Origin: a virus
Taxonomy: Duplodnaviria; Heunggongvirae; Uroviricota; Caudoviricetes
IMG/VR virus record: IMGVR_UViG_2721755710_000007
Span: 11,410-75,409 of that record
Length of the DNA: 64,000 nt
Strand: one strand, 5' to 3'
The notes below the pieces were generated by a model. That model was not told the origin of the DNA, searched no databases, and saw nothing but the letters and a program-made list of their open reading frames with translations. Each line of letters starts with the position of its first letter. The stretch's first letter is position 1. The position numbers and the translations under genes are program-made. Below are positions 1 through 27,749 of this stretch, in pieces.

Positions 1-1
1 G

Positions 2-1039
2 GCTGGTGAACACGCCGATCATCTCTTGTATATCATCGACGAAGCGTCGGGTGTGAGTGATAAAGCATTCAGTGTGATAACAGGTGCGCTGACCGGTAAG
101 GATAACCGTATTCTGCTTCTTTCCCAGCCTACGCGACCTTCAGGCTATTTCTACGATTCACACCACAGACTAGCTATTCGCCCGGGAAATCCTGATGGAT
201 TGTTTACTGCGATAATACTGAATAGTGAAGAATCTCCGCTTGTAGATGCAAAATTTATACGAGCAAAACTTGCGGAGTATGGCGGTCGTGATAACCCCAT
301 GTACATGATCAAAGTACGTGGTGAATTTCCCAAATCTCAAGATGGCTTTCTTCTTGGTCGTGATGAGGTTGAGCGGGCGACGCGGCGAAAGGTCAAGATT
401 GCCAAAGGATGGGGCTGGGTTGCATGTGTTGACGTTGCTGGTGGCACAGGACGAGATAAGTCCGTTATTAATATCATGATGGTGTCCGGCCAGCGAAATA
501 AACGCCGTGTAATCAACTATCGTATGCTGGAATACACAGACGTTACAGAAACGCAGTTAGCCGCCAAGATTTTCGCAGAATGTAACCCAGAACGGTTCCC
601 GAACATAACCATAGCTATTGATGGCGATGGCTTGGGGAAATCGACGGCTGATCTAATGTACGAACGCTATGGCATTACCGTCCAGCGTATCCGCTGGGGT
701 AAAAAGATGCACAGCCGTGAAGATAAAAGCCTTTATTTCGATATGCGCGCTTTCGCGAATATTCAGGCGGCAGAAGCTGTAAAATCAGGGCGTATGAGGC
801 TTGATAAGGGGGCTGCGACTATAGAGGAAGCATCAAAGATACCGGTAGGGATAAATTCCGCAGGTCAATGGAAGGTGATGTCAAAGGAAGATATGAAGAA
901 AAAACTCAACCTGCACTCACCGGACCATTGGGATACATATTGTTTCGCTATGTTGGCGAACTATGTTCCCCAGGATGAAGTGCTTAGCGTCGAAGACGAA
1001 GCGCAGGTTGATGAAGCTCTGGCATGGCTTAATGAATAA
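2..1039 (+). CDS. pacB: phage terminase large subunit, C-terminal part (PacB-like); 5' end lies outside the window
   Basis: ORF runs from window edge; IIDEAS Walker-B-like and CVDVAGG nuclease-like motifs; sits next to c1 as pacB does in P1. Confidence 0.6.
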
Positions 1040-1063
1040 CTCATTAACCATGCCGGATAGAAA

Positions 1064-1915
1064 CTATTGCGCGCTTTCGGGGTTGTCGTTTACTGGCTGC
1101 CCCTTCTTAGTTTTACGGCTGCGCGTAACTGATGCGGCTGATTTGACCTTTTTCTCTTCGCGAGTGATGGCAATTTGTTTTTTTACATTTTCAATATCTG
1201 CCAGGCGATATATTTTTGCCTGCGGCCAGCGGTCGCAGATGATCGGTTCTATAGAGTCATAAAGGCTAAATTTTGCTTTCTCGAATTCACCGTTGATGAT
1301 GATTCCATCACGGAGAGTTTCATCGCAGATAAACACACCACACAGCGGCACATGGTAACTAACTGATTTACCATCATTGTAGTTAGGGCTACTGGAAATG
1401 TAATGGACGCGCAGCATTGTTTCGCTAAAGCCGTGTACACGCATACGGAATTTTTCATCCTCCGGGTACTGCTTCATTAGCTCTTTTGTTGCTTCCAGGT
1501 TCTCTATGTATTTCGCACTGTGCTCATTGATCCCCGCGCTTTTCTGGATGCGAATGTCCTTATCAATCAGATGAATAATGCGGCCAGCGGTCATGTTGAC
1601 GCTGTTCACAGCTTCTGTCTGATAAGTTGTAACCTTACGCACACCGCGAAGGATGTTAGGCACTGGATATAAAATAGTCTTTGGGATATTGAGGTCTGGG
1701 TACTGTTCCAGTTCTCGCGCCATTAAAGTCCATTTATCAATTTCAGCCTGAATGCTGTCCGTTTCTTTGAACGGCAGAACGACAACCGGGCGTACAGGAC
1801 GACCGTCGCTGGCGGCATCAACGTGTTGGGCGCGTGCAACAGCTTTTTTTAGAAAGAGATCCCTGAAGCTGACGAACTCCTGGTACAGTTGTTCGCCGTA
1901 GACATAATTTATCAT
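1064..1915 (-). CDS. c1: C1 repressor of lysogeny
   Basis: 283-aa ORF starting MINYVYGEQLYQEF, matching recalled P1 C1 in length and N-terminus; cognate operator sites occur across the window. Confidence 0.85.
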   Translation of the reverse strand: MINYVYGEQLYQEFVSFRDLFLKKAVARAQHVDAASDGRPVRPVVVLPFKETDSIQAEIDKWTLMARELEQYPDLNIPKTILYPVPNILRGVRKVTTYQTEAVNSVNMTAGRIIHLIDKDIRIQKSAGINEHSAKYIENLEATKELMKQYPEDEKFRMRVHGFSETMLRVHYISSSPNYNDGKSVSYHVPLCGVFICDETLRDGIIINGEFEKAKFSLYDSIEPIICDRWPQAKIYRLADIENVKKQIAITREEKKVKSAASVTRSRKTKKGQPVNDNPESAQ

Positions 1916-2009
1916 TGATCCTCCTCCAGAATTGACATGGTCAATAACGCCCGGCTGAGAAAACCGGTCATTACTGACCTATATTATAGAGGGATCAAAC
2001 GAAAATAAT

Positions 2010-2026
2010 AGATTTATTAGTGCATT
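2010..2026 (-). promoter_or_regulatory. C1 operator-like site between coi and c1
   Basis: 13/17 match to reverse complement of ATTGCTCTAATAAATTT. Confidence 0.3.
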
Positions 2027-2235
2027 TATTGTGAGTCTAACTGGTTAGTTGCCATGAGATATTCGATTGTGTCAGTGAGGTCATCCAGGTCGTCTTGGGT
2101 GATGCGGTACTCCTGATTGGATATCTTTGAGTAGTGTTCAGCAATGGCGCGGGCTGCGTCGGTTTCGGCAGGGTCTACAGATAAAGCGTTAGAGCAATGT
2201 CTAACGTCGTCGATGGTTGGTTGAATGAAAGCCAT
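2026..2235 (-). CDS. coi: Coi-like small protein (C1 inactivator)
   Basis: 69-aa ORF immediately upstream of c1 on the same strand, as in the P1 immC region. Confidence 0.55.
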   Translation of the reverse strand: MAFIQPTIDDVRHCSNALSVDPAETDAARAIAEHYSKISNQEYRITQDDLDDLTDTIEYLMATNQLDSQ

Positions 2236-2599
2236 AATTATGCCTCACTGTATTGACAACACAGAGCCTGAAGCTCTGACCTACTGTTTCACCCATGATC
2301 CATGCTGGGGTAATCTAACAACATTGCGCTGTGTGTAAGATGAGCAATGCGGTGATGCTGCCAACTTACTGATTTAGTGTATGATGGTGTTTTTGAGGTG
2401 CTCCAGTGGCTTCTGTTTCTATCAGCTGTCCCTCCTGTTCAGCTACTGACGGGGTGGTGCGTAACGGCAAAAGCACCGCCGGACATCAGCGCTATCTCTG
2501 CTCTCACTGCCGTAAAACATGGCAACTGCAGTTCACTTACACCGCTTCTCAACCCGGTACGCACCAGAAAATCATTGATATGGCCATGAATGGCGTTGG

Positions 2600-4052
<1,453 letters not shown>

Positions 4053-4176
4053 ATAGCTGTAATGCCGTTGTATAAGGTTTCCCTGTTTGCTCATTTCCTT
4101 CTGAGCCGCTCTACAACGCTGAAGACACATTAAATAGTGAATCCAAAGTCGTATTACGTAACGGCGGCAAAACTAT

Positions 4177-4193
4177 AATTTATTAGAGCAATT
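4177..4193 (-). promoter_or_regulatory. C1 operator
   Basis: AATTTATTAGAGCAAT, 16/17 match to operator consensus (reverse orientation). Confidence 0.5.
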
Positions 4194-4258
4194 GTCAAAC
4201 AACTATGAAAAACAATCCAGTTTTTGGCTGGTGGAGTGGGATTTTTCTCTCAAAATTT

Positions 4259-4275
4259 ATTGCTCTAATAATTAT
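4259..4275 (+). promoter_or_regulatory. C1 operator
   Basis: ATTGCTCTAATAATTAT, 15/17 match. Confidence 0.5.
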
Positions 4276-4318
4276 TGATTTTTATGCGCAGCTGGACGTA
4301 AACTCCTCTTCAGACCTA

Positions 4319-4352
4319 ATAACTTCGTATAGCATACATTATACGAAGTTAT
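4319..4352 (+). other. loxP recombination site
   Basis: Exact 34-bp ATAACTTCGTATA-GCATACAT-TATACGAAGTTAT. Confidence 0.97.
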
Positions 4353-4419
4353 CTTAGGGGTTATTGAACATGATCAATTTACCTGTAAATCTATACAGTT
4401 CAATACCTTATCAGGTCAA

Positions 4420-4445
4420 ATAGTGATCACTTGATCATTTGATCA
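4420..4445. promoter_or_regulatory. cluster of three GATC (Dam) sites in the cre upstream region
   Basis: GTGATCACTTGATCATTTGATCAAGG; cre promoters are Dam-sensitive in P1. Confidence 0.4.
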
Positions 4446-4770
4446 AGGTTGCGCTACGTAAAATCTGCGAAATGTTGGCAGTGTTAGTGCTCCAGATTTC
4501 GCGTAGCGCACTTAGCACCACCAATCAATCAGAGGTGAAAAATGGGATATTCAGCTGCTAAAGTGTCCACTCATCTTGAGCTTGAGAAAAATCGTGGTTA
4601 CTGGCGGGCAAAAGGGTTTGATCGTGATAGTTGTCAACTGTCATTATCGCGCGGTGAAGAAAAGATAGAACGCAGTCGCGGTCGTTGGCGTTTCTATGAC
4701 GAGAACCATAAACAGGTAAAGGCAGAGCCGATCCTGTACACTTTACTTAAAACCATTATCTGAGTGTCAA

Positions 4771-5802
4771 ATGTCCAATTTACTGACCGTACACCAAAAT
4801 TTTCCTGCATTGCCGGTCGATGCAACGAGTGATGAGGTTCGCAAGAACCTGATGGACATGTTCAGGGATCGCCAGGCGTTTTCTGAGCATACCTGGAAAA
4901 TGCTTCTGTCCGTTTGCCGGTCATGGGCGGCATGGTGCAAGTTGAATAACCGGAAATGGTTTCCCGCAGAACCTGAAGATGTTCGCGATTATCTTCTATA
5001 TCTTCAGGCGCGCGGTCTGGCAGTAAAAACTATCCAGCAACATTTGGGCCAGCTAAACATGCTTCATCGTCGGTCCGGGCTGCCGCGACCAAGTGACAGC
5101 AATGCTGTTTCACTGGTTATGCGGCGGATCCGAAAAGAAAACGTTGATGCCGGTGAACGTGCAAAACAGGCACTAGCGTTCGAACGCACTGATTTCGACC
5201 AGGTTCGTTCACTCATGGAAAATAGCGATCGCTGCCAGGATATACGTAATCTGGCATTTCTGGGGATTGCTTATAACACCCTGTTACGTATAGCCGAAAT
5301 TGCCAGGATCAGGGTTAAAGATATCTCACGTACTGACGGTGGGAGAATGTTAATCCATATTGGCAGAACGAAAACGCTGGTTAGCACCGCAGGTGTAGAG
5401 AAGGCACTTAGCCTAGGGGTAACTAAACTGGTCGAGCGATGGATTTCTGTCTCTGGTGTGGCTGATGATCCGAATAACTACTTGTTTTGCCGGGTCAGAA
5501 AAAATGGTGTTGCCTCGCCATCACCCACCAGCCAGCTATCAACTCGCGCCCTGGAAGGGATTTTTGAAGCAACTCACCGATTGATTTACGGGGCTAAGGA
5601 TGACTCTGGCCAGAGGTACCTGGCCTGGTCTGGACACAGTGCCCGTGTCGGAGCCGCGCGAGATATGGCCCGTGCCGGAGTTTCAATACCGGAGATCATG
5701 CAAGCTGGTGGCTGGACCAACGTAAATATTGTCATGAACTATATCCGTAACCTGGATAGTGAAACAGGGGCAATGGTGCGCCTGCTGGAAGATGGCGATT
5801 AG
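4771..5802 (+). CDS. cre: Cre site-specific tyrosine recombinase
   Basis: 343-aa ORF MSNLLTVHQN...LLEDGD, near-identical to recalled Cre; 420 bp downstream of loxP. Confidence 0.97.
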   Translation: MSNLLTVHQNFPALPVDATSDEVRKNLMDMFRDRQAFSEHTWKMLLSVCRSWAAWCKLNNRKWFPAEPEDVRDYLLYLQARGLAVKTIQQHLGQLNMLHRRSGLPRPSDSNAVSLVMRRIRKENVDAGERAKQALAFERTDFDQVRSLMENSDRCQDIRNLAFLGIAYNTLLRIAEIARIRVKDISRTDGGRMLIHIGRTKTLVSTAGVEKALSLGVTKLVERWISVSGVADDPNNYLFCRVRKNGVASPSPTSQLSTRALEGIFEATHRLIYGAKDDSGQRYLAWSGHSARVGAARDMARAGVSIPEIMQAGGWTNVNIVMNYIRNLDSETGAMVRLLEDGD

Positions 5803-5819
5803 CCATTAACGCGTAAATG

Positions 5820-5836
5820 ATTGCTCTAATTCTTTG
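5820..5836 (+). promoter_or_regulatory. C1 operator-like site
   Basis: ATTGCTCTAATTCTTTG, 13/17, first 11 positions exact. Confidence 0.35.
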
Positions 5837-5852
5837 ATATTTATGGTGACAT

Positions 5853-6164
5853 ATGAGAAAGGATTTCAACATCGACGGAAAATATGTAGTGCTGTCTGTA
5901 AGCACTAATATTCAGTCGCCAGCCGTCATTGTCACTGTAAAGCTGAGCGATAGAATGCCTGATATTGATTCAATATCCGTTGCGTTCCCTGTCAAAAGTA
6001 TGCGTGGTGCTGAACATTTCGTGATGAATGCCACCGAGGAAGAAGCACGGCGCGGTTTTGCTAAAGTGATGTCTGAGTTTGGCGAATTTTTGGGGCACGT
6101 TGACAAAGCCCTCTCAATCAGTTCAGCAAGGTCCAAAGCGTTAACAGCTTCCATGATGAAATAA
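5853..6164 (+). CDS. hypothetical 103-aa protein downstream of cre (position of P1 cra)
   Basis: ORF only; preceded by an operator-like site. Confidence 0.4.
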   Translation: MRKDFNIDGKYVVLSVSTNIQSPAVIVTVKLSDRMPDIDSISVAFPVKSMRGAEHFVMNATEEEARRGFAKVMSEFGEFLGHVDKALSISSARSKALTASMMK

Positions 6165-6295
6165 AAAAAAGCCTGGCAAGGAGCCAGGCTGCACAAAAGA
6201 GCGGGTTTGTATTCCGCATCCAATCAATCAAGAAGGAGTATAGCACACAGGTACTGAAGTGAAAAAATGTGATTCGCGATAAATAAACAACTTTA

Positions 6296-6312
6296 ATTGC
6301 TCTAATTGGTTG
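6296..6312 (+). promoter_or_regulatory. C1 operator-like site upstream of ref
   Basis: ATTGCTCTAATTGGTTG, 13/17; ref is C1-repressed in P1. Confidence 0.4.
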
Positions 6313-6379
6313 ATATAATTGAGTCGCAGTTTTTGTCAACTACGAAGACGTTGCCATTACTTCACTCCTTGACATCATA

Positions 6380-6405
6380 GGCGGCCATTAGGCCGCCTTT
6401 TTTTT
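6380..6405 (+). terminator. GC hairpin plus T8 run immediately upstream of the ref start codon
   Basis: GGCGGCC-ATTA-GGCCGCC followed by TTTTTTTT. Confidence 0.4.
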
Positions 6406-6411
6406 GACCAT

Positions 6412-6972
6412 ATGAAAACAATCGAACAAAAAATTGAACAGTGCCGCAAGTGGCAGAAGGCAGCCAGAGAACGAGCGATCGCTCGGCAACGGGAGAAGTT
6501 GGCTGATCCGGTCTGGCGAGAATCTCAATATCAGAAAATGCGGGATACTATCGACCGCCGTATCGCTAAACAGAAAGAACGCCCACTAACCAGCAAAACG
6601 CGGAAAATCGCGGTAAAAATAAAATCTCGTGGCTTGAAGGGACGAACACCGACGGCAGAGGAACGGCGCATAGCCAATGCTCTTGGCGCTCTCCCCTGCA
6701 TTGCCTGCTATATGCATGGAGTAATATCTGAAGAGGTGTCTCTGCACCATATCTCCGGTCGTACCGCGCCTGGTTGTCACAATAAGCAATTGCCCCTTTG
6801 TAGATGGCACCACCAGCATGCAGCACCGGCTGAAGTAAGAGAAAAATACCCCTGGCTGGTCCCTGTTCATGCCGATGGTGTGGTTGGAGGCAAGAAAGAA
6901 TTCACCCTGCTGAACAAGTCAGAGATGGAGTTGCTGGCTGACGCCTATGAGATGGCAAATATCATGCACTAA
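6412..6972 (+). CDS. ref: Ref recombination enhancement function (HNH endonuclease)
   Basis: 186-aa ORF; Cys/His-rich HNH-like core (CIACYMHG...HHISGR...CRWHH); length and position match P1 ref. Confidence 0.8.
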   Translation: MKTIEQKIEQCRKWQKAARERAIARQREKLADPVWRESQYQKMRDTIDRRIAKQKERPLTSKTRKIAVKIKSRGLKGRTPTAEERRIANALGALPCIACYMHGVISEEVSLHHISGRTAPGCHNKQLPLCRWHHQHAAPAEVREKYPWLVPVHADGVVGGKKEFTLLNKSEMELLADAYEMANIMH

Positions 6973-7018
6973 TATATTTATTATTTTTAAAATATTGGGG
7001 CGCGTATGCCCCTGTTTG

Positions 7019-7573
7019 TTAATGTTTTTTGTCCTCTTCCAGACGAGCAACTTTTAATTGTTTGTCCGTGATAGTAAGCAATGCAACCCCTTCTTTTTCG
7101 TACAAATAACCAGCTCCATTAATCAATAATACAAACCGATCCTTTCCTCGGAATACTTCATAATACTTACCAGCACCACAGGTTTTAGTTTCAATGCAGT
7201 CCAAACCAGAGATTGCAGCCTTATCAAAGATATGGTCCTTCGTCGCAACAGGTTTCCCATACTCTTTTGTAAGCATTTCATCTAATTGCATAAAGGTATA
7301 TTTGCCAACTTTTGTTGTCATGCTCAACTCAACCTTGCCATTAATCAACATTCCTGTGGTATGTGGTTCCTGAGCGTCAGGTGACGATTTATCGTATAAT
7401 GCAAAAAGTTCTATGTCTGGAGTCCGTTTTTCAAAAGTGGCTTCGTCCTGTTCTTCAAGATAACTCTTGTCTTCACCGATAAGTGAGAGTTTATCAATCT
7501 CTGACTGGTTACACCCTGTTAACATTAGAGCCATAGCAATAGAAGCGATGATGTTGAAACTACGATTTTTCAT
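7019..7573 (-). CDS. putative lipoprotein
   Basis: 184-aa ORF with signal peptide and lipobox LTGC. Confidence 0.5.
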   Translation of the reverse strand: MKNRSFNIIASIAMALMLTGCNQSEIDKLSLIGEDKSYLEEQDEATFEKRTPDIELFALYDKSSPDAQEPHTTGMLINGKVELSMTTKVGKYTFMQLDEMLTKEYGKPVATKDHIFDKAAISGLDCIETKTCGAGKYYEVFRGKDRFVLLINGAGYLYEKEGVALLTITDKQLKVARLEEDKKH

Positions 7574-7855
7574 TAATCAATCTCCGTGATTTGTGGTCAT
7601 CAAGACCGGACGCAGGAATAGCCCAGACTCTACTACTGCAACCATATAAAAAATAATAGAAATATTGGTTTATAGCATTTTTACAGATAAAAAAATTGAC
7701 ATCTGACAAATTACTTCTGCCAAAATCACATCAAGCCCGGTACGGATGGATCCCTTTTCAAATATTCCATGGACGGCACAGTCTGAGTACCGGGCGCTAC
7801 CTTCAGTTGTATTGCTAAGCCGCCGCTGGTGGCTTTTCTTTTTTGTAGGGGCGCT

Positions 7856-8500
7856 ATGGATAAGAAAATATGCGTTGTTTCGATGAGCGTCGGCAAACCG
7901 GCGTCAATGACTGCTGCATGGATCAACAACGAGCTGATAATGGCTGATCGGACCAGCTACCCTGAACGCCGCCGCGATATGGAACTCCAGCTGCTGCGCG
8001 AATTGCGAGAAAAAGAGGAAAAGGGTTTTATCGTGCTGGTGGAAGAGGAAAACAGCTTTATTACCGGTCGAGTTGGCCAGCGTGTAAGGTTGCGCGATCC
8101 CTTCATGAACGGCAGGCCGGTACTAATTGAAGCAATGCAGATTTACAAGGAGTTGGAACGCCAGAAAGCGATCAAGTTACCGCGCAAGGAATCCGGCAAA
8201 TACATCCTCCACCAAAGCATCTTCGATTCCGAACACGATAAAAAAGGCGATGAGTTTTTCAACATCAACTGGAGCGAGATAACGACAGAGCATGTTCTAA
8301 CGTTGTTATGCTGCTTCGCAACAGAATACAACAACGTGGTAAGCGCAGACTACATCAGGACAATGACAAACACCGTTACTAAACAAGACAACGAATATTC
8401 ACCATATGAGCTATTTGTAAATATGATAAAAGCATTTTATCGGATGGAGCTCGCTAAAGTTCCTCAAGGTAAATTAACAGGTAAGGATAACATCTTTTAA
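7856..8500 (+). CDS. hypothetical protein
   Basis: ORF from ATG at 7856 (MDKKICVV...); no recognised motif. Confidence 0.4.
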   Translation: MDKKICVVSMSVGKPASMTAAWINNELIMADRTSYPERRRDMELQLLRELREKEEKGFIVLVEEENSFITGRVGQRVRLRDPFMNGRPVLIEAMQIYKELERQKAIKLPRKESGKYILHQSIFDSEHDKKGDEFFNINWSEITTEHVLTLLCCFATEYNNVVSADYIRTMTNTVTKQDNEYSPYELFVNMIKAFYRMELAKVPQGKLTGKDNIF

Positions 8501-8553
8501 GCACAGTAATAAGGTGCTTAGATGTTCATATCAATATCCTAACTCTCTGCATC

Positions 8554-9243
8554 TCATAAATCTGATAGCCACTTACTATCTATGGACTCAATCTCCGTCA
8601 GCGGAATTGATGGGAAAAAATATCCCTGAGCGCCCCATAGCCCTATCCCTTTTGATAACTTATGACAATCAATGTTTTCGACGCCTTCAGCGATGATATT
8701 CGGACATAACTTTTTTAAATTGCTAATAATGACATCAAAATGAGGCTTAATCATATGCTCTTGAAAAAATGACTTATCAAGTTTTATTGCATGATATTTA
8801 TTTTTAATTAATGCTTTCATGGTGGCGTTACCACTTCCAAAATCATCAAGCCAAACATTATCTGTCAAAGTCAGTAGAAAGGATATGACGTAATCCTCAT
8901 CGCTTAAATCAGGATAGTTTTCTGATATCTCAATCGCTATAAATTTATTGTTTATTAGTAGTTCTTGAATTTGTTTATTGCCATATATATATAAACAGGT
9001 ATCATAATCTACATTGATAGAGCATAATATATTATGGCATTCAAAAAAACACTTATATTTGATTATTGTGTTAAGTTGAGATTTTAGCAAGTTAATCTTC
9101 ATCTTGCTTGTAAATATACCTAATACTTTCTGAGTAGAAAGAATAGCCCCCTCGTTGGAATAAAATCTGCTCAACACTTCCACTGCTATCAACTTGTTAG
9201 TGCTTGTGGAAATGATTGGTTCTACTATGTAGATAACTTCCAT
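8554..9243 (-). CDS. EAL-domain protein (c-di-GMP phosphodiesterase-like, possibly degenerate)
   Basis: 229 aa with EVLSRF, EISE, DDFGSG, KLDKSF, EGVE, QGY motifs; AT-rich. Confidence 0.6.
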   Translation of the reverse strand: MEVIYIVEPIISTSTNKLIAVEVLSRFYSNEGAILSTQKVLGIFTSKMKINLLKSQLNTIIKYKCFFECHNILCSINVDYDTCLYIYGNKQIQELLINNKFIAIEISENYPDLSDEDYVISFLLTLTDNVWLDDFGSGNATMKALIKNKYHAIKLDKSFFQEHMIKPHFDVIISNLKKLCPNIIAEGVENIDCHKLSKGIGLWGAQGYFFPSIPLTEIESIDSKWLSDL

Positions 9244-9464
9244 GCTCCCACCCTCTATTTTTAAATTGGTTGGCTTTAGCAGATAAAGTGCCCTTTATAT
9301 TTACAGGGGTTACACACTATGTCAATTTATTTATCTGTAGTGAAATTGATAAAAATTCAATAATAAAAGCAGCAACTGTGACACAAATCAATATTTTTAT
9401 TTTTTGCACAACTTCTTGATTTCAGTGCTGCTGTATCTCTATTCTTGTTCAAAGCCTCTTTAGA

Positions 9465-10198
9465 ATGGTGGTAGCTATGTCAGGAGTCTGTTACTTCATC
9501 CTAATAAAGAAACCGATAAATTTTCAATTTCTTAAGGATTTCTTAATATTAAATTATGGTGATGTGCTGTTGCTTAAACATTCTGAACGCGAATTCTTAC
9601 AAACCTATTCAGATAAATATATCGAATTCGAACTTAATGATAGTGCCGTAAGAAACTATTTATCTTGTCACAATCACCAAGGGAAGCAACTTCTGGATAA
9701 ATGCCCACATTTGCTAAAAAAGTCTTTTGCTTATCCTGATTTATTAATCAGGATGATCGATAATATAAGTGACCAGAATCATATACATCCTGATTTTAAG
9801 GATGCTTTAACTTTTTCATTACTTTCAATTTTTAGTGATGTTGACAACCTTAGAGCTTTTCTTAAATCTGGTATGCCTACTTTCTCAGGGAAAGTACGCA
9901 GCATATTTCTTTCAGATGTATCTAAACATTGGAAACTAAGAGACTTAACTGATTATCTATACATAGTGAGAGTTTAATAAAGAAAAAACTCTTATTAGAA
10001 AACACCTCCTTCAGTAAGTTATTACTTGATACACAAATGGCTTTTGCTATTAAATTACTAAAGCAAAACCGCCCCCTCAAACAAGTATCAGAAAGTTGTG
10101 GTTTTAGTAGCATATCGTACTTTGTGTGCCTATTTAGGCAGTATTATAATTGTACACCATGTGAATATGTAAAACATCAGTTATCATCTGGGAAATAA
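9465..10198 (+). pseudogene. AraC-family transcriptional regulator, frameshifted
   Basis: 170-aa N-terminal ORF, then in another frame a C-terminal HTH (LKQVSESCGFSSISYFVCLFRQYYNCTPCEY) ending at 10198. Confidence 0.5.
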
Positions 10199-10236
10199 GA
10201 TGCATTTATCTCCCAGATAATATTGTAATATTAAAC

Positions 10237-10485
10237 TCAGTCAGCATTTAGTAGCAGAGCATTATCTATGATGATCTGCTCCCATTCTTCGAATGCCCGG
10301 TCGCGGACGCCCTGGGGAACGCTGTTTGTTTTGAAATCGACGACCGTCCGCCATTTCCCGTCCGGACGGTACATGCGCAGAGCTTTACTTCCCCCTTCCC
10401 TGCGCACCTCAACGTTATGCTTGTCAGCAAACTCTTGTAATGCTCGTAGCGTCCCATGCTTTACTGTGTAGTATCGCTTTTTCAA
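10237..10485 (-). CDS. hypothetical 82-aa basic protein, third gene of a three-gene operon
   Basis: Start overlaps the stop of the upstream gene by 4 bp; may be a 3'-truncated fragment because an AT-rich junction follows directly. Confidence 0.45.
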   Translation of the reverse strand: MKKRYYTVKHGTLRALQEFADKHNVEVRREGGSKALRMYRPDGKWRTVVDFKTNSVPQGVRDRAFEEWEQIIIDNALLLNAD

Positions 10486-10955: not shown

Positions 10956-12887
10956 TTATGCGTATTGTTGGATGACGGCCAGAACGTCCGCCACGTTGTG
11001 TTTTGTCTCGATAATCCACCAGTTGCCCGGGAAATCGCTGTTCTTCGCCTTCGCTGGCAGCCAGCGAGCGCCGAATTTTTCCTTGATTGCGTCTTTAGCA
11101 CGGAAAAGAACGCCTTTCATGCCGGACGCCTCCTGAAGCCCAAATACCTCACCAGCGGCGAATTTTGGTGCGTACATCATCTTCAGGTCGGCGGTGGATA
11201 CGCGATAATTCAGACCAAGAGACTGAGCTATGCTGGTGGCATCACCCTGTATTGATGATAACTCTTCTTGTTTCTCGTTTCTGGCGGCAATTTCTTCCTC
11301 CGTGATGTTGCCTAGGGCCAGGTTTATCCGATCAGCGTCGGCCTGTTTCTCTTCATCGGTGCGCCCGGCAAGAACCGTGTTAATTCTCTGCAATATCTCA
11401 ACATGATTCTTGCGCATGCTAAGCAATTCCGGCGTAACCTCGTTAAGGTCCACCAGCCCAAGGATGGCAAGGTCGGAAAACATTGATACCAGGTTGTAGG
11501 TCATGCGATAGCTGAGTTGCCCATAGGCTGATGGCAACTGCACCGCATCCATTTGATAGGCATCCATAAATTTAGAGCCGTCGTTTACGACATCCGCAAT
11601 TGCCGGTGTGATTTTCCCTGTGGTGGCGGCCTCCCTGATTGCTGTTACCCACGATTGAGTCAGCGCGGCGACTGCATGATTCAGATTGGCTTTCCGTTCT
11701 GCTGCAATACGCGCGCTTGCAGCGTCCATTGCCTGCTTGATCTCGTCTTTATTGCTGTAAATGCCAATGGTGCCAAACTGTGCTGTGGTGATCTCATAAT
11801 CTGACGCCCGGAACTCATGGGTACCGAAAATGGCATTGGTGACCTCAAGTTCAGAATCCCCGTTACGAGTAGCCCCCTGGCTTGTTTTCTCCGGCATTCT
11901 GGCGATCGCATCCGCTATTGTCTCCTGAATTGCTTCAGGGGATAGCGTATCTCCGTATGACGCGATTACTTCGCCATAATTGGAGCCAAACAGTTCAGTC
12001 AGGAATACTTCTGCCAAACGGACCTGGCGGTTATTCCCTTCCGACATCATACCAAGCACCCATTTTGCAATTGACGACTTCAGCGCGCCGTCACGGCGAT
12101 CCGGGTAAACCGCATGCTTCAGTGGGTCCGTATAGGTACCAACAAAATCAATGCTATAGCCTGACTCTGTAGTCTGAACGCCGTATGAGTCAGTGATTTT
12201 GATCATGCCGCGCTGCTGGAAACGGTAGAAATCGTCACAGGAAATGATGTCGTTAATCCCGGCGATGGAGACGCCACCACTGATTTTCTGCATAACAGCA
12301 TCTTCATCGGGAGTTACATCCACCTGTTTATCCAGCGTCTTCACATCCCAGTTACCCGATTTGGTGCCTTTGAAGGTAAAGATGATCTCCACGTCTGCGC
12401 GCTGGCTGTCGAAGTCCAGCGACTTAATGCGAACGATATCACCGGCACAATCGTAGTATTGGCCTACACGCCATGAGCGATCGCCGATAACAAGGAACTC
12501 ATTCGCATGGTTAACCAGATCAGGATCAACATCCAGAATGCCTTTATTTATTGCATCCTCCACCAGCGGGCGCAGGCGTTTGATATCCGTCGCGGCCTTC
12601 TGAGTACGGTTCAATAATTTCTCATAGCGGGAGATGGCTTGAGTGATATTAGCCTTGCGCTGAATGGCGCTTTTCAACGACGCGCGATAATGTGCTAACA
12701 ACGTACGGTCTGTGTGATGGACGCTACCCCAGCGGGCCTTCCAGTCTGCATTATCAGCTGCTTTGGCCATTAACTGGAGTGCCATCAGTACCAAGAACAG
12801 GAGCACCTCCCACGCTAATAGACTGGCCCCCTGAATCTCACCGTTCTGAAACCACAACAAAAAAACATCAGGAATAAAAAACACCAC
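10956..12887 (-). CDS. hypothetical large protein (up to 643 aa), first gene of operon; true start probably internal (Met codon at 12785 or 12770)
   Basis: Long ORF; codons 17-23 are encoded by an IS2 IRL remnant so the annotated N-terminus is doubtful; no Walker or methyltransferase motifs seen. Confidence 0.5.
   Translation of the reverse strand: MVFFIPDVFLLWFQNGEIQGASLLAWEVLLFLVLMALQLMAKAADNADWKARWGSVHHTDRTLLAHYRASLKSAIQRKANITQAISRYEKLLNRTQKAATDIKRLRPLVEDAINKGILDVDPDLVNHANEFLVIGDRSWRVGQYYDCAGDIVRIKSLDFDSQRADVEIIFTFKGTKSGNWDVKTLDKQVDVTPDEDAVMQKISGGVSIAGINDIISCDDFYRFQQRGMIKITDSYGVQTTESGYSIDFVGTYTDPLKHAVYPDRRDGALKSSIAKWVLGMMSEGNNRQVRLAEVFLTELFGSNYGEVIASYGDTLSPEAIQETIADAIARMPEKTSQGATRNGDSELEVTNAIFGTHEFRASDYEITTAQFGTIGIYSNKDEIKQAMDAASARIAAERKANLNHAVAALTQSWVTAIREAATTGKITPAIADVVNDGSKFMDAYQMDAVQLPSAYGQLSYRMTYNLVSMFSDLAILGLVDLNEVTPELLSMRKNHVEILQRINTVLAGRTDEEKQADADRINLALGNITEEEIAARNEKQEELSSIQGDATSIAQSLGLNYRVSTADLKMMYAPKFAAGEVFGLQEASGMKGVLFRAKDAIKEKFGARWLPAKAKNSDFPGNWWIIETKHNVADVLAVIQQYA
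12819..12839 (+). mobile_element. 21-bp IS2 left inverted repeat remnant
   Basis: TAGACTGGCCCCCTGAATCTC identical to the IRL of the intact IS2 at 19645; similarity stops after 21 bp. Confidence 0.6.
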
Positions 12888-13385
12888 ACAAACACAGCAC
12901 TGTACCCCCCCTCATAACTGAAAAGCGCCGCCGCCCCCGCCCGAAGGGCGGGAACAACATCGCTTTTAATTATGAATGTTGTAAGTACATTGTCATCGCT
13001 GTCAGTCTTCTGGCTGGAAGTCCTCAGTACACGCTCGTAAGCGGCCCTCACGGCCCGCTAACGCGGAGATACGCCCCGACTTCGGGTAAACCCTCGTCGG
13101 GACCACTCCGACCGCGCATAAAGGCTCTGTCATGGCTGAAAACGGGTATGGCTTAGCAGGGCCGGGGGTGGGTAAGGTGAAATCTATCAGTCAGTACCGG
13201 CTTACGCCGGGCTTCGGCGGTTTTACTCCGGTATCATATGAAACAACAGAGTGCCGCCTTCCATGCCGCTGGCGCGGCATCAGGACAACTGAAGAGTGAC
13301 GGCGCACATTAACATCAAACAGACTTGTTAAGCAGTCTTTCAGGGTGTAATCTGAAGACCTGTTAAATAGTCTCAGAGGTGTGTT

Positions 13386-13637
13386 ATGCCCAGTATCATT
13401 TTGTCTGACACCAGTGCAAGCGTCAGTGAGCTGAAAAAAAATCCGATGGCAACTGTCAGTGCCGGAGAGGGGTATCCTGTTGCCATTCTTAACCGGAATC
13501 AGCCAGCATTCTACTGTGTCCCTGCTGAGCTCTATGAAAGAATGCTTGATGCCTTGGATGACCAGGAGCTGGTAAAACTGGTTACTGAACGCAGCAGTCA
13601 GCCTCTGCATGATGTGGACCTGGACAGTTATTTATGA
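13386..13637 (+). CDS. stbD: StbD/RelB-like antitoxin
   Basis: 83-aa ORF overlapping the toxin start by 4 bp. Confidence 0.75.
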   Translation: MPSIILSDTSASVSELKKNPMATVSAGEGYPVAILNRNQPAFYCVPAELYERMLDALDDQELVKLVTERSSQPLHDVDLDSYL

Positions 13638-13921
13638 CTTATACAGTAAAATTCCGGGATGATGCACTGAAAGAATGGCTCAGACTGGACAAGACCATTC
13701 AGCAGCAGTTCGCAAAAAAACTGAAAAAATGCAGTGAAAATCCTCATATAGCTTCTGCAAAACTACGTGGATTAAAGGACTGCTATAAAATCAAACTTCG
13801 CGCATCAGGTTTTCGTCTGGTTTATCAGGTTATTGATGATATGTTAATTATTGCGGTCGTCGCAGTAGGTAAACGTGAACGCAGCAACGTTTATCATCTC
13901 GCCAGTGAACGGATGAAATAA
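13634..13921 (+). CDS. stbE: RelE/StbE-family toxin (mRNA interferase)
   Basis: 95 aa; ...LRGLKDCYKIKLRASGFRLVYQVIDD...VGKRERSNVY closely resembles recalled E. coli RelE. Confidence 0.8.
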   Translation: MTYTVKFRDDALKEWLRLDKTIQQQFAKKLKKCSENPHIASAKLRGLKDCYKIKLRASGFRLVYQVIDDMLIIAVVAVGKRERSNVYHLASERMK

Positions 13922-14780
13922 TATCCTGGTCAGCACTCTTTCTTACCTGCTTCCATTTTTTCAGTGATTCTTTTCCTGCATGCAGAAAAAAAGCCTACCC
14001 TGTGGGCAGGCATAACAGACAATCGCACAGTCAGTGTTGAAATTAATGATGTCACGCATTATACCCGGTGGATACACAAACCATCCCTGCAAATGCATTG
14101 GCATCCTAATCAACGTCTGAAACAACTGCAATGGCCGGATCTGTGATTTCAGAGAAAGTTATTATGTTTATTGAATATAACCGAAGTGATAAATAAAAGT
14201 ATTATCACCTTTAATATTTATGCTTATTGCGTGGTTTTATCTGGTTATATAAAGCACAGATGTTCTTATTATTTTCTGAAAAATAACCATATGGATCGAT
14301 TTCCCCCACCCAGCCGAAGCGGTTCGGCTCGTTCGGCGTGTCGTCGACACTGAAGCGCTTATCCATTTCGTTCCAGCGGTAAGAGTTGTCGCTGTCGCTG
14401 ACGAATGCCATCGGGTCGCTAAACAGCGTGATCCGCCATGCGATCAAAAAGCGTAAGTGTTTCCGACAGACGAGCCGGTGAAAAAAGTGGTGTGTCTGGC
14501 AATACAGGCATCGTCCCCGAAATGGACGATGCCGTTGAAGGACTGGGGTATGGCAATAAGCCGCTTTATTATCGGATTCAGTGACCGCCTGGACGGTTAC
14601 TTTTGAGAAAAGGCATTTACACACAATCCTAAACAGACTCCTATATTTCAGATTTTGTTATCAACGCATTTCAAATCTCTTAGAAATCATTACTGTCGTC
14701 ATATTTTCCGAGGCAGCTCACCACCTAACTATGTTTTATCAACAATATTTTGTGAAGGATATTTATAATGTAAAGACACA

Positions 14781-17700
14781 TCAGAAACGATATTCCACAC
14801 TCAACATGGCAGATGTATTATGGTATCCATGTTCTCCAAGTTGAATGCCTGCATCAGCCCGGAATGCTACTTCTGGTGTTATCATTCCCACAACACCACC
14901 ATTTATTTCTCCGATATCACGCGCACCATCCTGGTATATACTTACACCATTCATACTGGTGCCGAAAACACGACTATTGTGCAACCAGTGTGCCTCCACA
15001 AATGGTCTGAACGGAACCGCATACCGCGTATTTTTACCGTTTTTGCTGGTAAGCCATGTTCTTGCTCCCAGGCGGGTGAGAATATTTCCGTTACCGGTAT
15101 TTTCAATACTGGTTCCGTTACTTTCATGATATTTGTCTGATTTTACATTCATCCGGACAACCTGAAGCTGCGGCTGAACATACCATTCATGACTTCCCTT
15201 GTAATTGTCGGTAAACTCTCCAGCCTTCCATGAATATCCTGCTTCCAGAGATACCGTAAACCCTTTTGACTTCCATGACTCAGCAGGCAGCCGTTCTCCA
15301 TTTATATGATTATCAAACCAGCTGTATTGCAGCCAGCTATCAAGATAAGAACCATTGTGTGTTTCATCATTGGCATACCATGTTGCATAAAGACCCGCTG
15401 TGTATCCATTCATTCTTCCTTCCGAATGGTATCCGGTGCTCAGGGCATTCGTACTGTTATTATTATGACCATAGCCAGCCATCATACCTGTATGCCAGCG
15501 ATCGGTACCATTCAGGCTCCACTGAGCTATATCTCCCCCTATTAACACAACGTAGCTATTCCCCCGGGTTCTCAGCTGACTACTGTTGTCACGCCAGCGA
15601 TTATGTTTTCCTTTATTATACATCCAGATACCTGCTTCATTTTCTTCTCCTGTCATGTGGCTGATATACAACTCCTGTCCCTGTCGTTCATACAGATTCG
15701 TTACAAACAGATTATTTGCAGCAGCAATACTGGCAACATAGCTACCTGCCTCAGGACGCAAATTATTATCATGGTTTTCCGGTACAGCTTCAGGTTGTGG
15801 TACAGGAATGTCTTTTCTGCTAATCAGATACCAGTTAGTGCTGTTAATCCCCTGACCACGTTTCAGTATGTAATCATAAGCTCCGGCTGTAATACGTTCC
15901 GTCTGAATGAATTCAGCATTATCAGCATTGCCACTGACGTGAATCACTTCAATCCCATTAAGTGTCTCTGCACCAGTACCACCGGCCTGAGTAACAGCGA
16001 CACGGGTACGGCCACTGGCATTACCTTTAATCACCAGACGATCTGTTTTCGAATTGTCACCACCTGTTTCTGTCTGGAGGAGAATAAGTCCATTTCTGCC
16101 AGTGTAATTCCCTCCGACAGTCAGTATATTACCCGGCATATATGTAGTGAGATCGACTATACCACTATTGCTCAGATTTCCTGCAACGCCCCCAAACCCG
16201 GAGAGTTTGCCCTGCTCTTCAACAATGACCTGGTTACTGCCGAGCATCACCGGTGAATCTGCGTTCCCCAGTATCACTGTCCCCTGAATAATATCTGTCA
16301 TCCCGGTCCATTTTGCGTTATCGCTAATGTTCAGTGCACCTGCTCCCGTCTTGCGAACATTACCATAACCACTGATATTGTTGGTAAGCTGCCATGCTGA
16401 TGTACTGTTCAGAGTTAATGTGCCATAGTTATCAACAAAGGCTGTCCCCAGATTATCAGCCGTGGATACAGCCAAATGAGCCCCCTTATTCACGGTAAAA
16501 ACACCGGAAAAATTACGATTATTACCCGTTATATCAAGCATTCCCCCATTTATGTTCAGAGAACCATCCCCTGCAATAGTACCTGCAGATTCTCCTCCAT
16601 TATTCAGTATCAGGCTTCCGCCATGAATGTTCAGCACAGAGCCTGCAGCCGTCAGTAGTTTGCTTATTGTCTGAGGATACCCATTCATATCCAGTTCTGC
16701 GCCACGGGATAAATATAAATACTCAGTCCGACCAAGAGCATCAGGTGCAGCAAGAATTAATACGCCAGATTTAACCTCTGTATTTCCTGTATAATTGTTT
16801 GTTGCAGAAAGTATAAGAGTACCATTACCTGATTTTGTCAGACTTTTGCCGTCCCAGCCATCATATAATAAAGGTGAAAGATTATCGGAAAGAGAAACAC
16901 CTATGTTCAGAGTGGCATCTTTTTCTATATTAAAGGTTCCATATCCCATGCCTTTTGTATTATTCCATCTCAGCATGGAGATCAGTTTGTTATCGTCGTC
17001 ATTTAAAGACGTATAAACATAACTTTCAGCACCTTCTGTCAGTAATACATTGTATTGTACAATGTGACTATTATCAGCGATCGAGATACCTGTGTCTGAC
17101 GACAATAATGTGTAATAGTCCTGAGTCCAGTTCTTAATTGATGTGTCTATATTAAGCCATGAATCACTTTTTAATGTAATAGTATTTGCGTGAACATTAG
17201 CATTTCCTACAGACAGGTTCATAGATGCGTCTTCATCAATACTTATATTTCCGTTAAAAATGGAGTTCTTGCCTGACAGATAAACAGATGAGCCATTCCC
17301 AATCATTAGCCCACCATTAATTGCTGTTGCGTTATTGATGTTTTTAATAATTAATTCATTTGTACCATTAACAGGTATACTAGCTAGTTTAATATCACCA
17401 TTAATCACAGAATCTGAATAAATATCTAATGAATTATACCCGCCAGAAAAAATTATTGATGTATTATAAGCATCTTTTTGGCTATTATATAATCCTGAAA
17501 GATTACCATGATTATTAATATGGATATCTTCTCCATAAACAGAGCAACCACCGTCGGGGCCATATCCCCCCTGAACAATACCGTTATTATTCAAAGTGAT
17601 TTGATTTCCAGAAATAGCATCTCCCCCTTGTTTTATTCCATATCCTCCAGATATCATGTTGTCGTTAGTAATGAAAAGATTACTACCATTAATACCATCA

Positions 17701-18278
17701 CCACCGTTTACGCCATTACCGCCCAATATTCCTCCGGAATTATGCACTGTAATATTGCTACCGGTTACACCGGAACCACCTGTCCCACCTACATCATCAC
17801 CTCCGTATATACTTCTGTAATTATCAACTATAATATCATCCCCGCTTAACCCTGCACCTCCGCTACTTCCTGAGCCACCAAGACCATTACCCCCATATAC
17901 ATTTCTGTAATTGTTTATAGATATTTTGTTGCCACTAACAGCAATTCCACCATTATATCCATCTCCTCCCCAAACACTACCATTATTATTTAGCGTAAAG
18001 TTTTCACCGTAGACACCTGCACCACCGATTGATGTATTGCTTGTTCCTCCTTTGATGTTAATACTGCTTTCAACAGATAGTATATTTTGAGTATAACTTG
18101 TTTTATACGGCACGCTGATATTAAGCGCCGCGTTTCCATCAACACCTGTAATACTCCTGGTTATACTTTTAGGTATACCATTACCATTCAGTTGTATTGT
18201 TTGCGCACCAGAAAAATGAGACTGCACAGAATAAATTATACTGACCAGAAATTGTAAAATTCGTATATTCTTATTCAT
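14781..18278 (-). CDS. autotransporter adhesin (AIDA-I/TibA/Ag43-like)
   Basis: 1165 aa; signal peptide, glycine-rich ~19-aa passenger repeats, C-terminal beta-barrel ending ...SVEYRF; AT-rich. Confidence 0.75.
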   Translation of the reverse strand: MNKNIRILQFLVSIIYSVQSHFSGAQTIQLNGNGIPKSITRSITGVDGNAALNISVPYKTSYTQNILSVESSINIKGGTSNTSIGGAGVYGENFTLNNNGSVWGGDGYNGGIAVSGNKISINNYRNVYGGNGLGGSGSSGGAGLSGDDIIVDNYRSIYGGDDVGGTGGSGVTGSNITVHNSGGILGGNGVNGGDGINGSNLFITNDNMISGGYGIKQGGDAISGNQITLNNNGIVQGGYGPDGGCSVYGEDIHINNHGNLSGLYNSQKDAYNTSIIFSGGYNSLDIYSDSVINGDIKLASIPVNGTNELIIKNINNATAINGGLMIGNGSSVYLSGKNSIFNGNISIDEDASMNLSVGNANVHANTITLKSDSWLNIDTSIKNWTQDYYTLLSSDTGISIADNSHIVQYNVLLTEGAESYVYTSLNDDDNKLISMLRWNNTKGMGYGTFNIEKDATLNIGVSLSDNLSPLLYDGWDGKSLTKSGNGTLILSATNNYTGNTEVKSGVLILAAPDALGRTEYLYLSRGAELDMNGYPQTISKLLTAAGSVLNIHGGSLILNNGGESAGTIAGDGSLNINGGMLDITGNNRNFSGVFTVNKGAHLAVSTADNLGTAFVDNYGTLTLNSTSAWQLTNNISGYGNVRKTGAGALNISDNAKWTGMTDIIQGTVILGNADSPVMLGSNQVIVEEQGKLSGFGGVAGNLSNSGIVDLTTYMPGNILTVGGNYTGRNGLILLQTETGGDNSKTDRLVIKGNASGRTRVAVTQAGGTGAETLNGIEVIHVSGNADNAEFIQTERITAGAYDYILKRGQGINSTNWYLISRKDIPVPQPEAVPENHDNNLRPEAGSYVASIAAANNLFVTNLYERQGQELYISHMTGEENEAGIWMYNKGKHNRWRDNSSQLRTRGNSYVVLIGGDIAQWSLNGTDRWHTGMMAGYGHNNNSTNALSTGYHSEGRMNGYTAGLYATWYANDETHNGSYLDSWLQYSWFDNHINGERLPAESWKSKGFTVSLEAGYSWKAGEFTDNYKGSHEWYVQPQLQVVRMNVKSDKYHESNGTSIENTGNGNILTRLGARTWLTSKNGKNTRYAVPFRPFVEAHWLHNSRVFGTSMNGVSIYQDGARDIGEINGGVVGMITPEVAFRADAGIQLGEHGYHNTSAMLSVEYRF

Positions 18279-18325
18279 ACTGTTTTTTCTTTAGTGATGC
18301 ATTTTTTATCAACCTGGATTTGCCC

Positions 18326-19231
18326 CTATATTTCCAGACACCTGTTATCACTTAACCCATTACTGGCTTGCTGCCGTAGATATTCCCGTGGCGAGCGATA
18401 ACCCAGTGCACTATGCGGATGCCATTCGTTATAATGCTCGAATGCCTCTGCAAGGTTCTTTGCTGCCGTTAACCCGTCTGGTTTGGGCATGACACTGATG
18501 TAGTCACGCTTTATCGTTTTCACGAAGCTCTCTGCTATGCCGTTACTCTCCGGACTCCGCACCGCCGTGTTCTTCGGTTCAAGCCCCAACATCCGGGCAA
18601 ACTGCCGTGTTTCATTAGCCCGGTAGCATGAACCATTATCCGTCAGCCACTCTACTGGAGACGCCGGAAGCTCGTTGCCGAAACGGCGTTCCACCGCTCC
18701 CAGCATGACGTCCTGTACTGTTTCACTGTTGAAGCCGCCCGTAGTGACCGCCCAGTGCAGTGCCTCACGGTCACAGCAGTCCAGCGCGAACGTGACTCGC
18801 AGTTTTTCTCCGTTATCACAGCGGAACTCGAACCCGTCAGAGCACCATCGCTGATTACTTTCTTTCACAGCCACTCTGCCGGTATGTGCCCGTTTCGATG
18901 GCGGTACAGCGGGTTTTCGCTCAAGCAACAGCGCATTCTGGCGCATGATCCGGTAAATACGTTTGGCATTGATCGCAGGCATACCATCAAGTTCGGCCTG
19001 TCTGCGAAGCAGCGCCCATACCCGACGATAACCATACGTGGGCAGCTCTCCGATAACATGGTGTATACGGAGAAGCACATCCGTATCATCTGAGTGACGG
19101 CTGCGGCGACCATCTTTCCAGTCATCGGTTCGTCTGAGAATTACGTGCAACTGCGCACGCGACACCCGGAGACAACGGCTGACTAAGCTTACTCCCCATC
19201 CCCGGGCAATAAGGGCGCGTGCGCTATCCAC
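18326..19231 (-). CDS. insD: IS2 OrfB transposase
   Basis: 301-aa IS3-family integrase-core ORF. Confidence 0.9.
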
Positions 19232-19554
19232 TTTTTTGCACGCCCGTATTCAACGGCTTCTTTAAGGAGTTCATTTTCCATCGTTTTTTTGCCGAGCAGG
19301 CGCTGGAGTTCTTTAATCTGCTTCATGGCAGCAGCAAGTTCAGAGGCAGGAACGACCTGCTCTCCTGCGGCCACAGCAGTAAGACTTCCCTCCTGGTATT
19401 GCTTGCGCCAGAGAAATAACTGGCTGGCTGCCACACCGTGTTGCCGGGCAACAAGGGAGACCGTCATTCCCGGTTCAAAACTCTGCTGAACAATAGCGAT
19501 CTTTTCCTGTGTAGTACGCCGTCTGCGTTTCTCCGGTCCTAAGACATCAATCAT
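19189..19554 (-). CDS. insC: IS2 OrfA
   Basis: Starts [24 protein letters not shown]; overlaps OrfB as in IS3-family frameshift arrangement. Confidence 0.85.
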
Positions 19555-19759
19555 CTGCTCTCCAATGACTAGTCTAAAAACTAGTATTAAGACTATCACT
19601 TATTTAAGTGATATTGGTTGTCTGGAGATTCAGGGGGCCAGTCTAATTTATTATAGAGTATATATATGTACTGCGTTTAAATCATGAAGACGACAACCTG
19701 TTTTACATAAATTATTCCTAAGTATTTTTCCAGAGAAGACCTAGGTATAATGATGTGCA

Positions 19760-20527
19760 GGTAATGACTCCAACTTATTGATAGTGTTTTATGTTCAGAT
19801 AATGCCCGATGACTTTGTCATGCAGCTCCACCGATTTTGAGAACGACAGCGACTTCCGTCCCAGCCGTGCCAGGTGCTGCCTCAGATTCAGGTTATGCCG
19901 CTCAATTCGCTGCGTATATCGCTTGCTGATTACGTGCAGCTTTCCCTTCAGGCGGGATTCATACAGCGGCCAGCCATCCGTCATCCATATCACCACGTCA
20001 AAGGGTGACAGCAGGCTCATAAGACGCCCCAGCGTCGCCATAGTGCGTTCACCGAATACGTGCGCAACAACCGTCTTCCGGAGACTGTCATACGCGTAAA
20101 ACAGCCAGCGCTGGCGCGATTTAGCCCCGACATAGCCCCACTGTTCGTCCATTTCCGCGCAGACGATGACGTCACTGCCCGGCTGTATGCGCGAGGTTAC
20201 CGACTGCGGCCTGAGTTTTTTAAGTGACGTAAAATCGTGTTGAGGCCAACGCCCATAATGCGGGCAGTTGCCCGGCATCCAACGCCATTCATGGCCATAT
20301 CAATGATTTTCTGGTGCGTACCGGGTTGAGAAGCGGTGTAAGTGAACTGCAGTTGCCATGTTTTACGGCAGTGAGAGCAGAGATAGCGCTGATGTCCGGC
20401 GGTGCTTTTGCCGTTACGCACCACCCCGTCAGTAGCTGAACAGGAGGGACAGCTGATAGAAACAGAAGCCACTGGAGCACCTCAAAAACACCATCATACA
20501 CTAAATCAGTAAGTTGGCAGCATCACC
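19760..20527 (-). mobile_element. IS1 copy 2
   Basis: 768 bp identical in ORF content to copy 1 (insB 19775-20278, insA 20197-20472); no 9-bp duplication. Confidence 0.95.
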
Positions 20528-20563
20528 CTTAAGAAGATCGCCCTGAAATTCATCAAATAATCC

Positions 20564-21768: not shown

Positions 21769-22035
21769 GTGACCTCCTGATGTGAAATCACTATACCGAA
21801 GTGGTTTTTATTTTTTTTCACAAACAGGACTTTTTTCAGTGATTTTTTTCTGAGAATTATGAGGGGCGTGTCGTTGGTGCGATGCATACCGATAGTGAAT
21901 AACACCAGATGAGCTCGGGAACGGCATAGCGGGGTGTACTTATGTTCGGCAGAAAAGTAGCTTTTTCTGCAATGGGTATTCCTGATCCGGTGATTTGAAA
22001 AGTGCTGTTTTACTTACTAAGTTATACATATATCT

Positions 22036-23311: not shown

Positions 23312-23317
23312 ATATGG

Positions 23318-27158: not shown

Positions 27159-27749
<591 letters not shown>

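Follow-up and report, generated by a model that had tools for sequence, protein, structure and literature searches.

The interruption of imcA, in the immunity region (immC) of P1-like elements, is already on record in two published phages, RCS47 (FO818745, a P1-like phage carrying blaSHV-2) and phi456 (OR339795), both of which have the same immC allele as the DNA described here and an IS5 at the same imcA position (...GCAATGCATAG/GGAAGGTGCG); in RCS47, imcA is annotated as a split pseudogene and dmsABC cargo lies beside the IS5. The window, by which we mean the whole stretch of 64,000 nucleotides analysed, is assigned to the P1 family by its megablast matches (RCS47, phi456, P7 and P1), and judged by its sequence it is a P1-like plasmid. 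It differs from RCS47 and phi456 in that their IS5 has a complete left end and keeps the left ATAG, with no IS1 abutting imcA; the IS1 of RCS47 lies inside IS5 and in the opposite orientation. A closer relative is p22Q34-2 (NZ_ON934557.1, an IncY plasmid of E. coli), which like the window reads coi, imcA', IS1, truncated IS5, 'imcA, cra, cre; its IS1/IS5 fusion point is identical to that of the window and no difference was detected in the region. The whole 2,201-bp query is matched without a break by p22Q34-2, NZ_CP073950.1 and NZ_LR883966.1, with 99.6-99.8% identity. Because the same scar is present in dozens of public plasmids, the insert at the imcA site is an ordinary IS scar whose type and position are both known already.

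Projecting the P1 annotation onto the window, together with its open reading frames (ORFs), gives the following features for the immunity region.

26-1039, plus strand: pacB (ORF), ending 25 nt before the end of c1 (1064)
1064-1915, minus strand: c1, the primary repressor gene, 283 aa, intact (ORF)
1983-2012, minus strand: promoter Pc1, -10 at 1983-1988 and -35 at 2007-2012, 0 mismatches to P1
1999-2026, minus strand: Oc1ab, a bivalent operator overlapping Pc1 and contiguous with c1, 0 mismatches to P1
2026-2235, minus strand: coi, the C1 inactivator gene, 69 aa, intact (ORF)
2182-2198, minus strand: operator Oc1c (formerly Op99c), ATTGCTCTAACGCTTTA, identical to P1
2201-2296, minus strand: imcB, 31 aa, intact, protein identical to P1 ImcB
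2315-2350, minus strand: 3' fragment of imcA, codons 27-37 plus stop, severed from its start (P1 imcA mapped)
2351-3118, plus strand: complete IS1, 768 bp, both ends present, the left inverted repeat (IRL) abutting the imcA fragment
2406-2681, plus strand: insA, 91 aa (ORF)
2600-3103, plus strand: insB', 167 aa, overlapping insA (ORF)
3119-4052, plus strand: truncated IS5 (ISKpn26-like), element positions 263-1196, right inverted repeat intact
4053-4130, minus strand: 5' fragment of imcA, codons 1-26 (P1 imcA mapped, with the P1 ImcA translation)
4169-4198, minus strand: promoter P1coi (formerly P99d), intact, 0 mismatches to P1
4176-4192, minus strand: operator Oc1d within P1coi, 0 mismatches, also found by an independent consensus search
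4259-4275, plus strand: operator Oc1e, 1 mismatch to P1
4275-4304, plus strand: P4cre (P1 annotation mapped)
4319-4352, plus strand: loxP, 34 bp, identical to P1
4376-4403, minus strand: promoter P2coi, hexamers identical to P1
4381-4400, minus strand: LexA box overlapping P2coi, 1 mismatch, CTGT...ACAG kept
4542-4763, plus strand: cra, intact (ORF)
4771-5802, plus strand: cre, intact (ORF)

The C1 protein differs at one residue (position 193) from that of the P1 c1.100 mutant, and Coi differs at two residues from P1 Coi. RCS47 (2867-3982), phi456 (2650-2982) and locus L010 (100-432) have an extra antirepressor-like (ant/KilAC-domain) gene between pacB and c1; the window has none, pacB ending at 1039 and c1 at 1064.

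As an earlier note on this DNA had stated, IS1 stands beside the region upstream of coi and c1; it begins at 2351, 115 bp upstream of coi. The bases between them, 2236-2350, are P1 immC sequence and comprise the ribosome-binding region of coi, the imcB gene and the final 12 codons of imcA. The note had further proposed that the insertion removed what P1 has between this point and loxP; a blastn comparison with P1 (AF234172) contradicts this, since window 1-2349 corresponds to 669-3017 of the P1 junction sequence and window 4053-6500 to 3019-5466 of it; P1 runs colinear on either side of the insert, and not one base is missing. The base at 2350 is a T-to-C substitution relative to P1 that RCS47 and phi456 have as well. 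An insert-free query of 900 bases, made by joining 1901-2350 to 4053-4502, is matched as one piece from end to end on uninterrupted P1-like plasmids, at up to 99.4% identity. We could map c1, coi, imcB, imcA, Pc1/Oc1ab, Oc1c, P1coi/Oc1d, Oc1e and loxP, and only imcA is interrupted. Nor does the insertion abut or truncate the operator and promoter region, as had been thought: it lies inside the imcA reading frame, every P1-annotated site is present with 0-1 mismatch, and the alignment with P1 immC leaves all operators and promoters intact.

The bases directly before IS1 (2341-2350, TGAGCAATGC) do read GCATTGCTCA on the minus strand, but taking them for the start of a C1 operator is not supported. 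The full 17-mer, ATTGCTCATCTTACACA at 2332-2348 on the minus strand, has only 9 of 17 matches to the C1 operator consensus ATTGCTCTAATAAATTT, and the identical bases in P1 are imcA coding sequence and none of the five annotated operators Oc1a-e. The heptamer ATTGCTC occurs 20 times in the window, against about 7.8 occurrences expected from its length. Heptamer sites that coincide with P1-annotated operators or pass a search allowing three mismatches match the consensus at 12-17 of 17 positions, and most of the remaining heptamer sites in the window match at 7-11, like 2332-2348; two others, at 5820 and 6296, score 13 and lie outside the set mapped to P1 features. The 17-mer reads from IS1 outward into P1 DNA and is therefore not truncated by IS1. 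To judge by these comparisons, it is native imcA sequence with a chance match to the heptamer.

The insert itself occupies 2351-4052 (1,702 bp) and consists of an IS1 of 768 bp fused directly to the last 934 bp of an IS5. The size of the IS1 and both of its ends, with the imperfect terminal inverted repeats expected of the element (GGTGATGCTGCCAACTTACTGAT/GGTAATGACTCCAACTTATTGAT), are found at 2351-3118: the IRL reads GGTGATGCTGCC..., the element opening with GGTGATGCTGCCAACTTACTG at 2351 and closing with ...GGAGTCATTACC at 3118, and it is 98.8% identical to P1's own IS1. Transcription of insA/insB' points away from coi, and it is the 5' end of IS1 (the IRL) that faces coi. On comparing the flanks of this copy (left, GAGCAATGC; right, CATGCAGCA), we found no 9-bp target duplication; the right flank is IS5-internal sequence. 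The lack of a duplication fits a rearrangement rather than a simple insertion. The reference IS5 is 1,196 bp long with terminal repeats GGAAGGTGCGAA..., of which the window copy has lost the left one; its transposase ORF begins inside the gene, the N-terminus being gone, and the copy is an inactive remnant. The tetranucleotide ATAG at 4053-4056 is most likely the surviving right copy of the IS5 target duplication, the left copy, present at the same site in phi456 and RCS47, being gone. In consequence imcA spans 1816 bp in the window (2315...4130) against 114 bp in P1, and ImcA is broken after residue 26, where reading into the IS5 end adds GRCE and then a stop.

Our main reading, to which we give a probability of about 0.75, is that an otherwise intact immC has been split in imcA by an IS1/IS5 block, that this block arose through a nested series of deletions, and that it uncouples coi from its promoters. 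As regards its origin, the complete IS5 that phi456 and RCS47 have at ...GCAATGCATAG/, with ATAG repeated on its far side in phi456, indicates that the IS5 insertion came first. In NZ_CP070027.1 (FDAARGOS_1337 unnamed1) the two outer junctions, imcA'/IS1 (GCAATGC/IS1L) and IS5/ATAG'imcA (IS5R/ATAG), are identical to those of the window; between its IS1 and a complete IS5, inside imcA, lies a cargo of 11,330 bp (20969-32298) comprising a Tn1721-like mcp, TnAs1 (with the 5-bp duplication TCATA), dmsABC, a chaperone and a 4Fe-4S ferredoxin, so that the window differs from it by lacking this cargo and 262 bp of IS5. Of the same cargo, precisely the final 327 bp remain in CP010243 and the final 154 bp in AP027513; in others the cargo is gone entirely and the loss extends into IS5, by 137 bp in CP080123, 232 bp in CP070953 and 262 bp in the window and p22Q34-2. 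Deletions promoted by IS1 in adjacent DNA are anchored at an end of the element, and a fixed IS1 right end with variable end-points is the pattern expected from them. By this comparison the series runs from an IS5 inserted in imcA (ATAG), through a cargo with IS1 at its left border and IS5 at its right, to deletions extending from the right end of IS1, the final one removing 262 bp of IS5 and leaving the window as the most reduced form seen. In CP032239 the first 85 bp of the cargo are joined directly to IS5L, which means that the IS5 end, and not the IS1 end, served as the anchor of one deletion at least. IS1, at GCAATGC, stands exactly 4 bp from the former left end of IS5, a position that it may have reached through an IS1 cointegrate followed by IS5-IS5 recombination, a route that we only infer. 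We rejected a simple deletion leading from the RCS47 type to the window type: the left IS5 of RCS47 meets the dms cargo 76 bp deeper than the point where the IS1-type cargo starts, and its IS1 has the opposite orientation. The dms segment of the NZ_CP070027.1 cargo is the one that RCS47 carries beside its IS5, but the upstream IS junction of this segment in RCS47 differs by 5 bp from that in CP032239.

As regards regulation, P1coi and P2coi point leftward in the P1 annotation, so that transcription passes imcA and imcB before it enters coi and c1, and the 1.7-kb insert now places P1coi 1.9 kb from the coi start codon. Transcripts from P1coi, which is controlled by C1, and from P2coi, which is overlapped by the LexA box, would have to run antisense through IS5 and then IS1 before reaching imcB, coi and c1. 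Insertions of IS1 exert polarity whichever way they are oriented, and since this passage is needed coi would be largely cut off from its promoters; uncoupling of coi by the insert is therefore likely, and little C1- or SOS-regulated expression of imcB and coi would be expected. Coi has been reported to be expressed only from P1coi (PMC8546580). For its part, c1 keeps Pc1 with Oc1ab and Oc1c, and should be maintained normally from its own autoregulated promoter. With c1 under its operators and coi uncoupled, C1 repression would hold while the Coi arm of the lysis-lysogeny switch is lost, which would bias the element toward the plasmid state. The suggestion that the insertion could alter immunity regulation thus retains its plausibility, through the separation of coi from P1coi and P2coi and not through damage to an operator.

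The polar effect could be aided by a terminator-like hairpin: of those on the minus strand in the insert, only one has a U tract (3941-3954, just inside IS5), and it is weak (-5.9 kcal/mol); the other two are unremarkable when compared with shuffled sequences. C1 mediates looping between operators, and the displacement of Oc1d and Oc1e by 1.7 kb might affect their cooperation with the others. Read-through over IS5 and IS1, or a weak hybrid promoter, could provide some coi expression.

Limits on the size of any effect come from work on related phages. Phi456 has its IS5 at this very position in imcA, and yet it undergoes spontaneous induction, is responsive to nalidixic acid and makes plaques (PMC10967188); as it is still a working phage, interruption of imcA alone does not lock the element. 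In a CRISPRi screen coi and imcB were non-essential for lytic growth of P1 (PMC10695390), so that any phenotype may be subtle. We therefore expect the insert, if it has any effect, to modulate the switch rather than to disable the phage.

The same observations lend themselves to another explanation, that the insert has no meaningful regulatory consequence and is kept by descent in a successful plasmid lineage. The dispensability of coi and imcB for lytic growth and the working state of phi456 agree with it, as do the intact reading frames of coi, imcB and c1. So does the distribution of alleles. The c1 leader (1913-1997, minus strand, from the Pc1 -10 to the c1 ATG) carries 21 substitutions relative to P1, clustered at 1941-1997, and yet the two alleles share one fold, a long, interrupted hairpin whose loop has 5 nt and which immediately precedes the c1 ribosome-binding site (-27.0 kcal/mol, z -4.4, in the window; -33.5 kcal/mol, z -4.9, in P1), in what looks like a compensatory replacement of a structured leader. 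Every examined locus that has either the IS5 junction or an IS1 junction of the window type shares the leader allele of the window, which indicates one lineage, and pLKSZ04, discussed below, has the P1 allele. Against an inconsequential insert, coi is physically parted from the only promoters documented for it, and at least one further, independent IS1 insertion, found in 13 plasmids with a different immC allele, lies 20 bp away, a hint that the site is permissive or favoured and was not hit once only. On balance we consider this explanation rather unlikely.

The wider survey gives a measure of how common such interruptions are. Among 705 PLSDB records with the immC segment, 571 are uninterrupted, 78 have the imcA-IS5 junction and 54 an imcA-IS1 junction, the latter dividing into 41 with the exact junction of the window and 13 with the separate insertion; roughly 19%, or about one in five, of the P1-like plasmids in PLSDB are interrupted at the imcA site. 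The separate insertion (...CATAGCGGTAATGCCGTTGTA/IS1L) is 20 bp beyond the window site, in the same orientation and in the P1-type immC allele; an example is NZ_CP030285.1 (pLKSZ04; locus positions 3150-3241), and its hosts include Salmonella, Shigella, E. albertii and E. fergusonii. Interruption at the imcA site thus reflects at least two independent events. Twelve RefSeq genomes of E. coli contain the full 2.2-kb arrangement or a close variant, and the phage collection that we searched for the IS1 junction of the window returned no record of it. The variable regions listed in comparative studies of P1 do not include imcA (PMC6906374, PMC9603915), and in the literature that we searched no paper dealt with this site of insertion in imcA, with its regulation or with looping of Op99. 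One may speculate from this survey that the imcA site is a recurrent, tolerated docking point for IS-bounded cargo, whose occupation would uncouple Coi from its C1-controlled promoter and from the one that a LexA box overlaps, so that gaining cargo would move an inducible phage toward a stable plasmid; we think this generalization doubtful.

It could also be argued that IS1 activates rather than separates, the TTGGCA 8 bp inside its IRL forming with the imcA flank a C1-independent hybrid promoter that would give low constitutive transcription of imcB-coi (and c1) and a raised tendency to derepression. The 5' end of IS1, which carries a half promoter, does face coi, and the minus strand at 2365-2338 has TTGGCA, in the IRL, followed after 16 nt by CATCTT. 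However, CATCTT, the only -10 candidate in the 20 bp adjoining IS1, has only three of six matches to TATAAT, and a consensus scan of 1900-4500 reported no sigma-70 promoter on the minus strand where IS1 meets imcA, and gave only the inward promoter of IS1 itself; that scan also misses the known Pc1 and P1coi, and its negative result is therefore a weak one. In published work the 5' end of IS1 provides only a context-dependent half promoter, and IS1 termini alone gave no reporter expression (PMC5526668). We see no convincing outward IS1 promoter here, and hold both the hybrid promoter and the constitutive transcription that it would drive to be improbable.

IS1 is known to make adjacent deletions, and the absence of a target duplication and the ATTGCTC adjoining IS1 could be cited for the earlier note's model, in which IS1 sits on a C1 operator and promoter, the P1 DNA up to loxP is deleted and C1 control is removed; with P1 colinear over the insert and no base lost, an untruncated imcA-coding 17-mer matching at 9 of 17 positions, and Oc1d, Oc1e, P1coi, P2coi, the LexA box and loxP all in place at 4169-4403, the alignment already refutes it, and we assign it almost no probability. 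Of the earlier account as a whole, the sequence facts stand, the operator truncation and the deletion do not, and a change in immunity of a general kind is plausible.

According to the map of the window against P1, some 30 kb of P1 (12285-42920) are absent, with other DNA in their place at window 12772-24086; the missing part encodes most of darB, the portal, head-processing, lysis, ssb, dar, cin, tail-fibre and baseplate genes, and part of sit. At and within the replacement we find the following.

10956-12887, minus strand: darB, truncated to 643 aa
14781-18278, minus strand: autotransporter, 1165 aa (Pfam scan of the replacement genes)
18326-19231, minus strand: IS3-family transposase (Pfam scan of the replacement genes)
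21283-21768, minus strand: MobI-like ORF (same Pfam scan)
19760-20527 and 23317-24086, both minus strand: IS1 copies 2 and 3, inverted relative to copy 1

IS1 copy 3 (23317-24086) directly adjoins P1 position 42920, within sit, which is what a deletion anchored in P1's native IS1 would produce, and the remaining window is colinear with P1 up to pmgP. Recombination between IS1 copy 1 and copy 2 or 3 would invert the segment with loxP, cre, ref and lxc. The P1 res-mod region is replaced at 7000-10240 by other genes, including one for an EAL-domain protein (8554-9243, minus strand). Since about 30 kb including portal, lysis, tail-fibre and baseplate genes are absent within the window, we regard the element, as judged within these 64 kb, as probably a defective derivative of P1 that exists only as a plasmid; in principle the morphogenetic genes that are missing here might be located beyond these limits.

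If interruption of imcA silences coi, about one-fifth of the sequenced P1-like phage-plasmids would have an altered lysis-lysogeny switch, which would bear on whether resistance genes spread with them as phages or as plasmids, many of the interrupted elements carrying cargo at that site. For the window itself the consequence is small: the scar is of a known type, found also in two published phages, and the element is apparently defective. In classical polar insertions IS1 lies between a promoter and its gene, and the adjacent deletions share a fixed IS1 end; compared with those cases, the polarity of the insert described here is one that we infer, and the insert is a composite in which IS1 is joined to an IS5 remnant.
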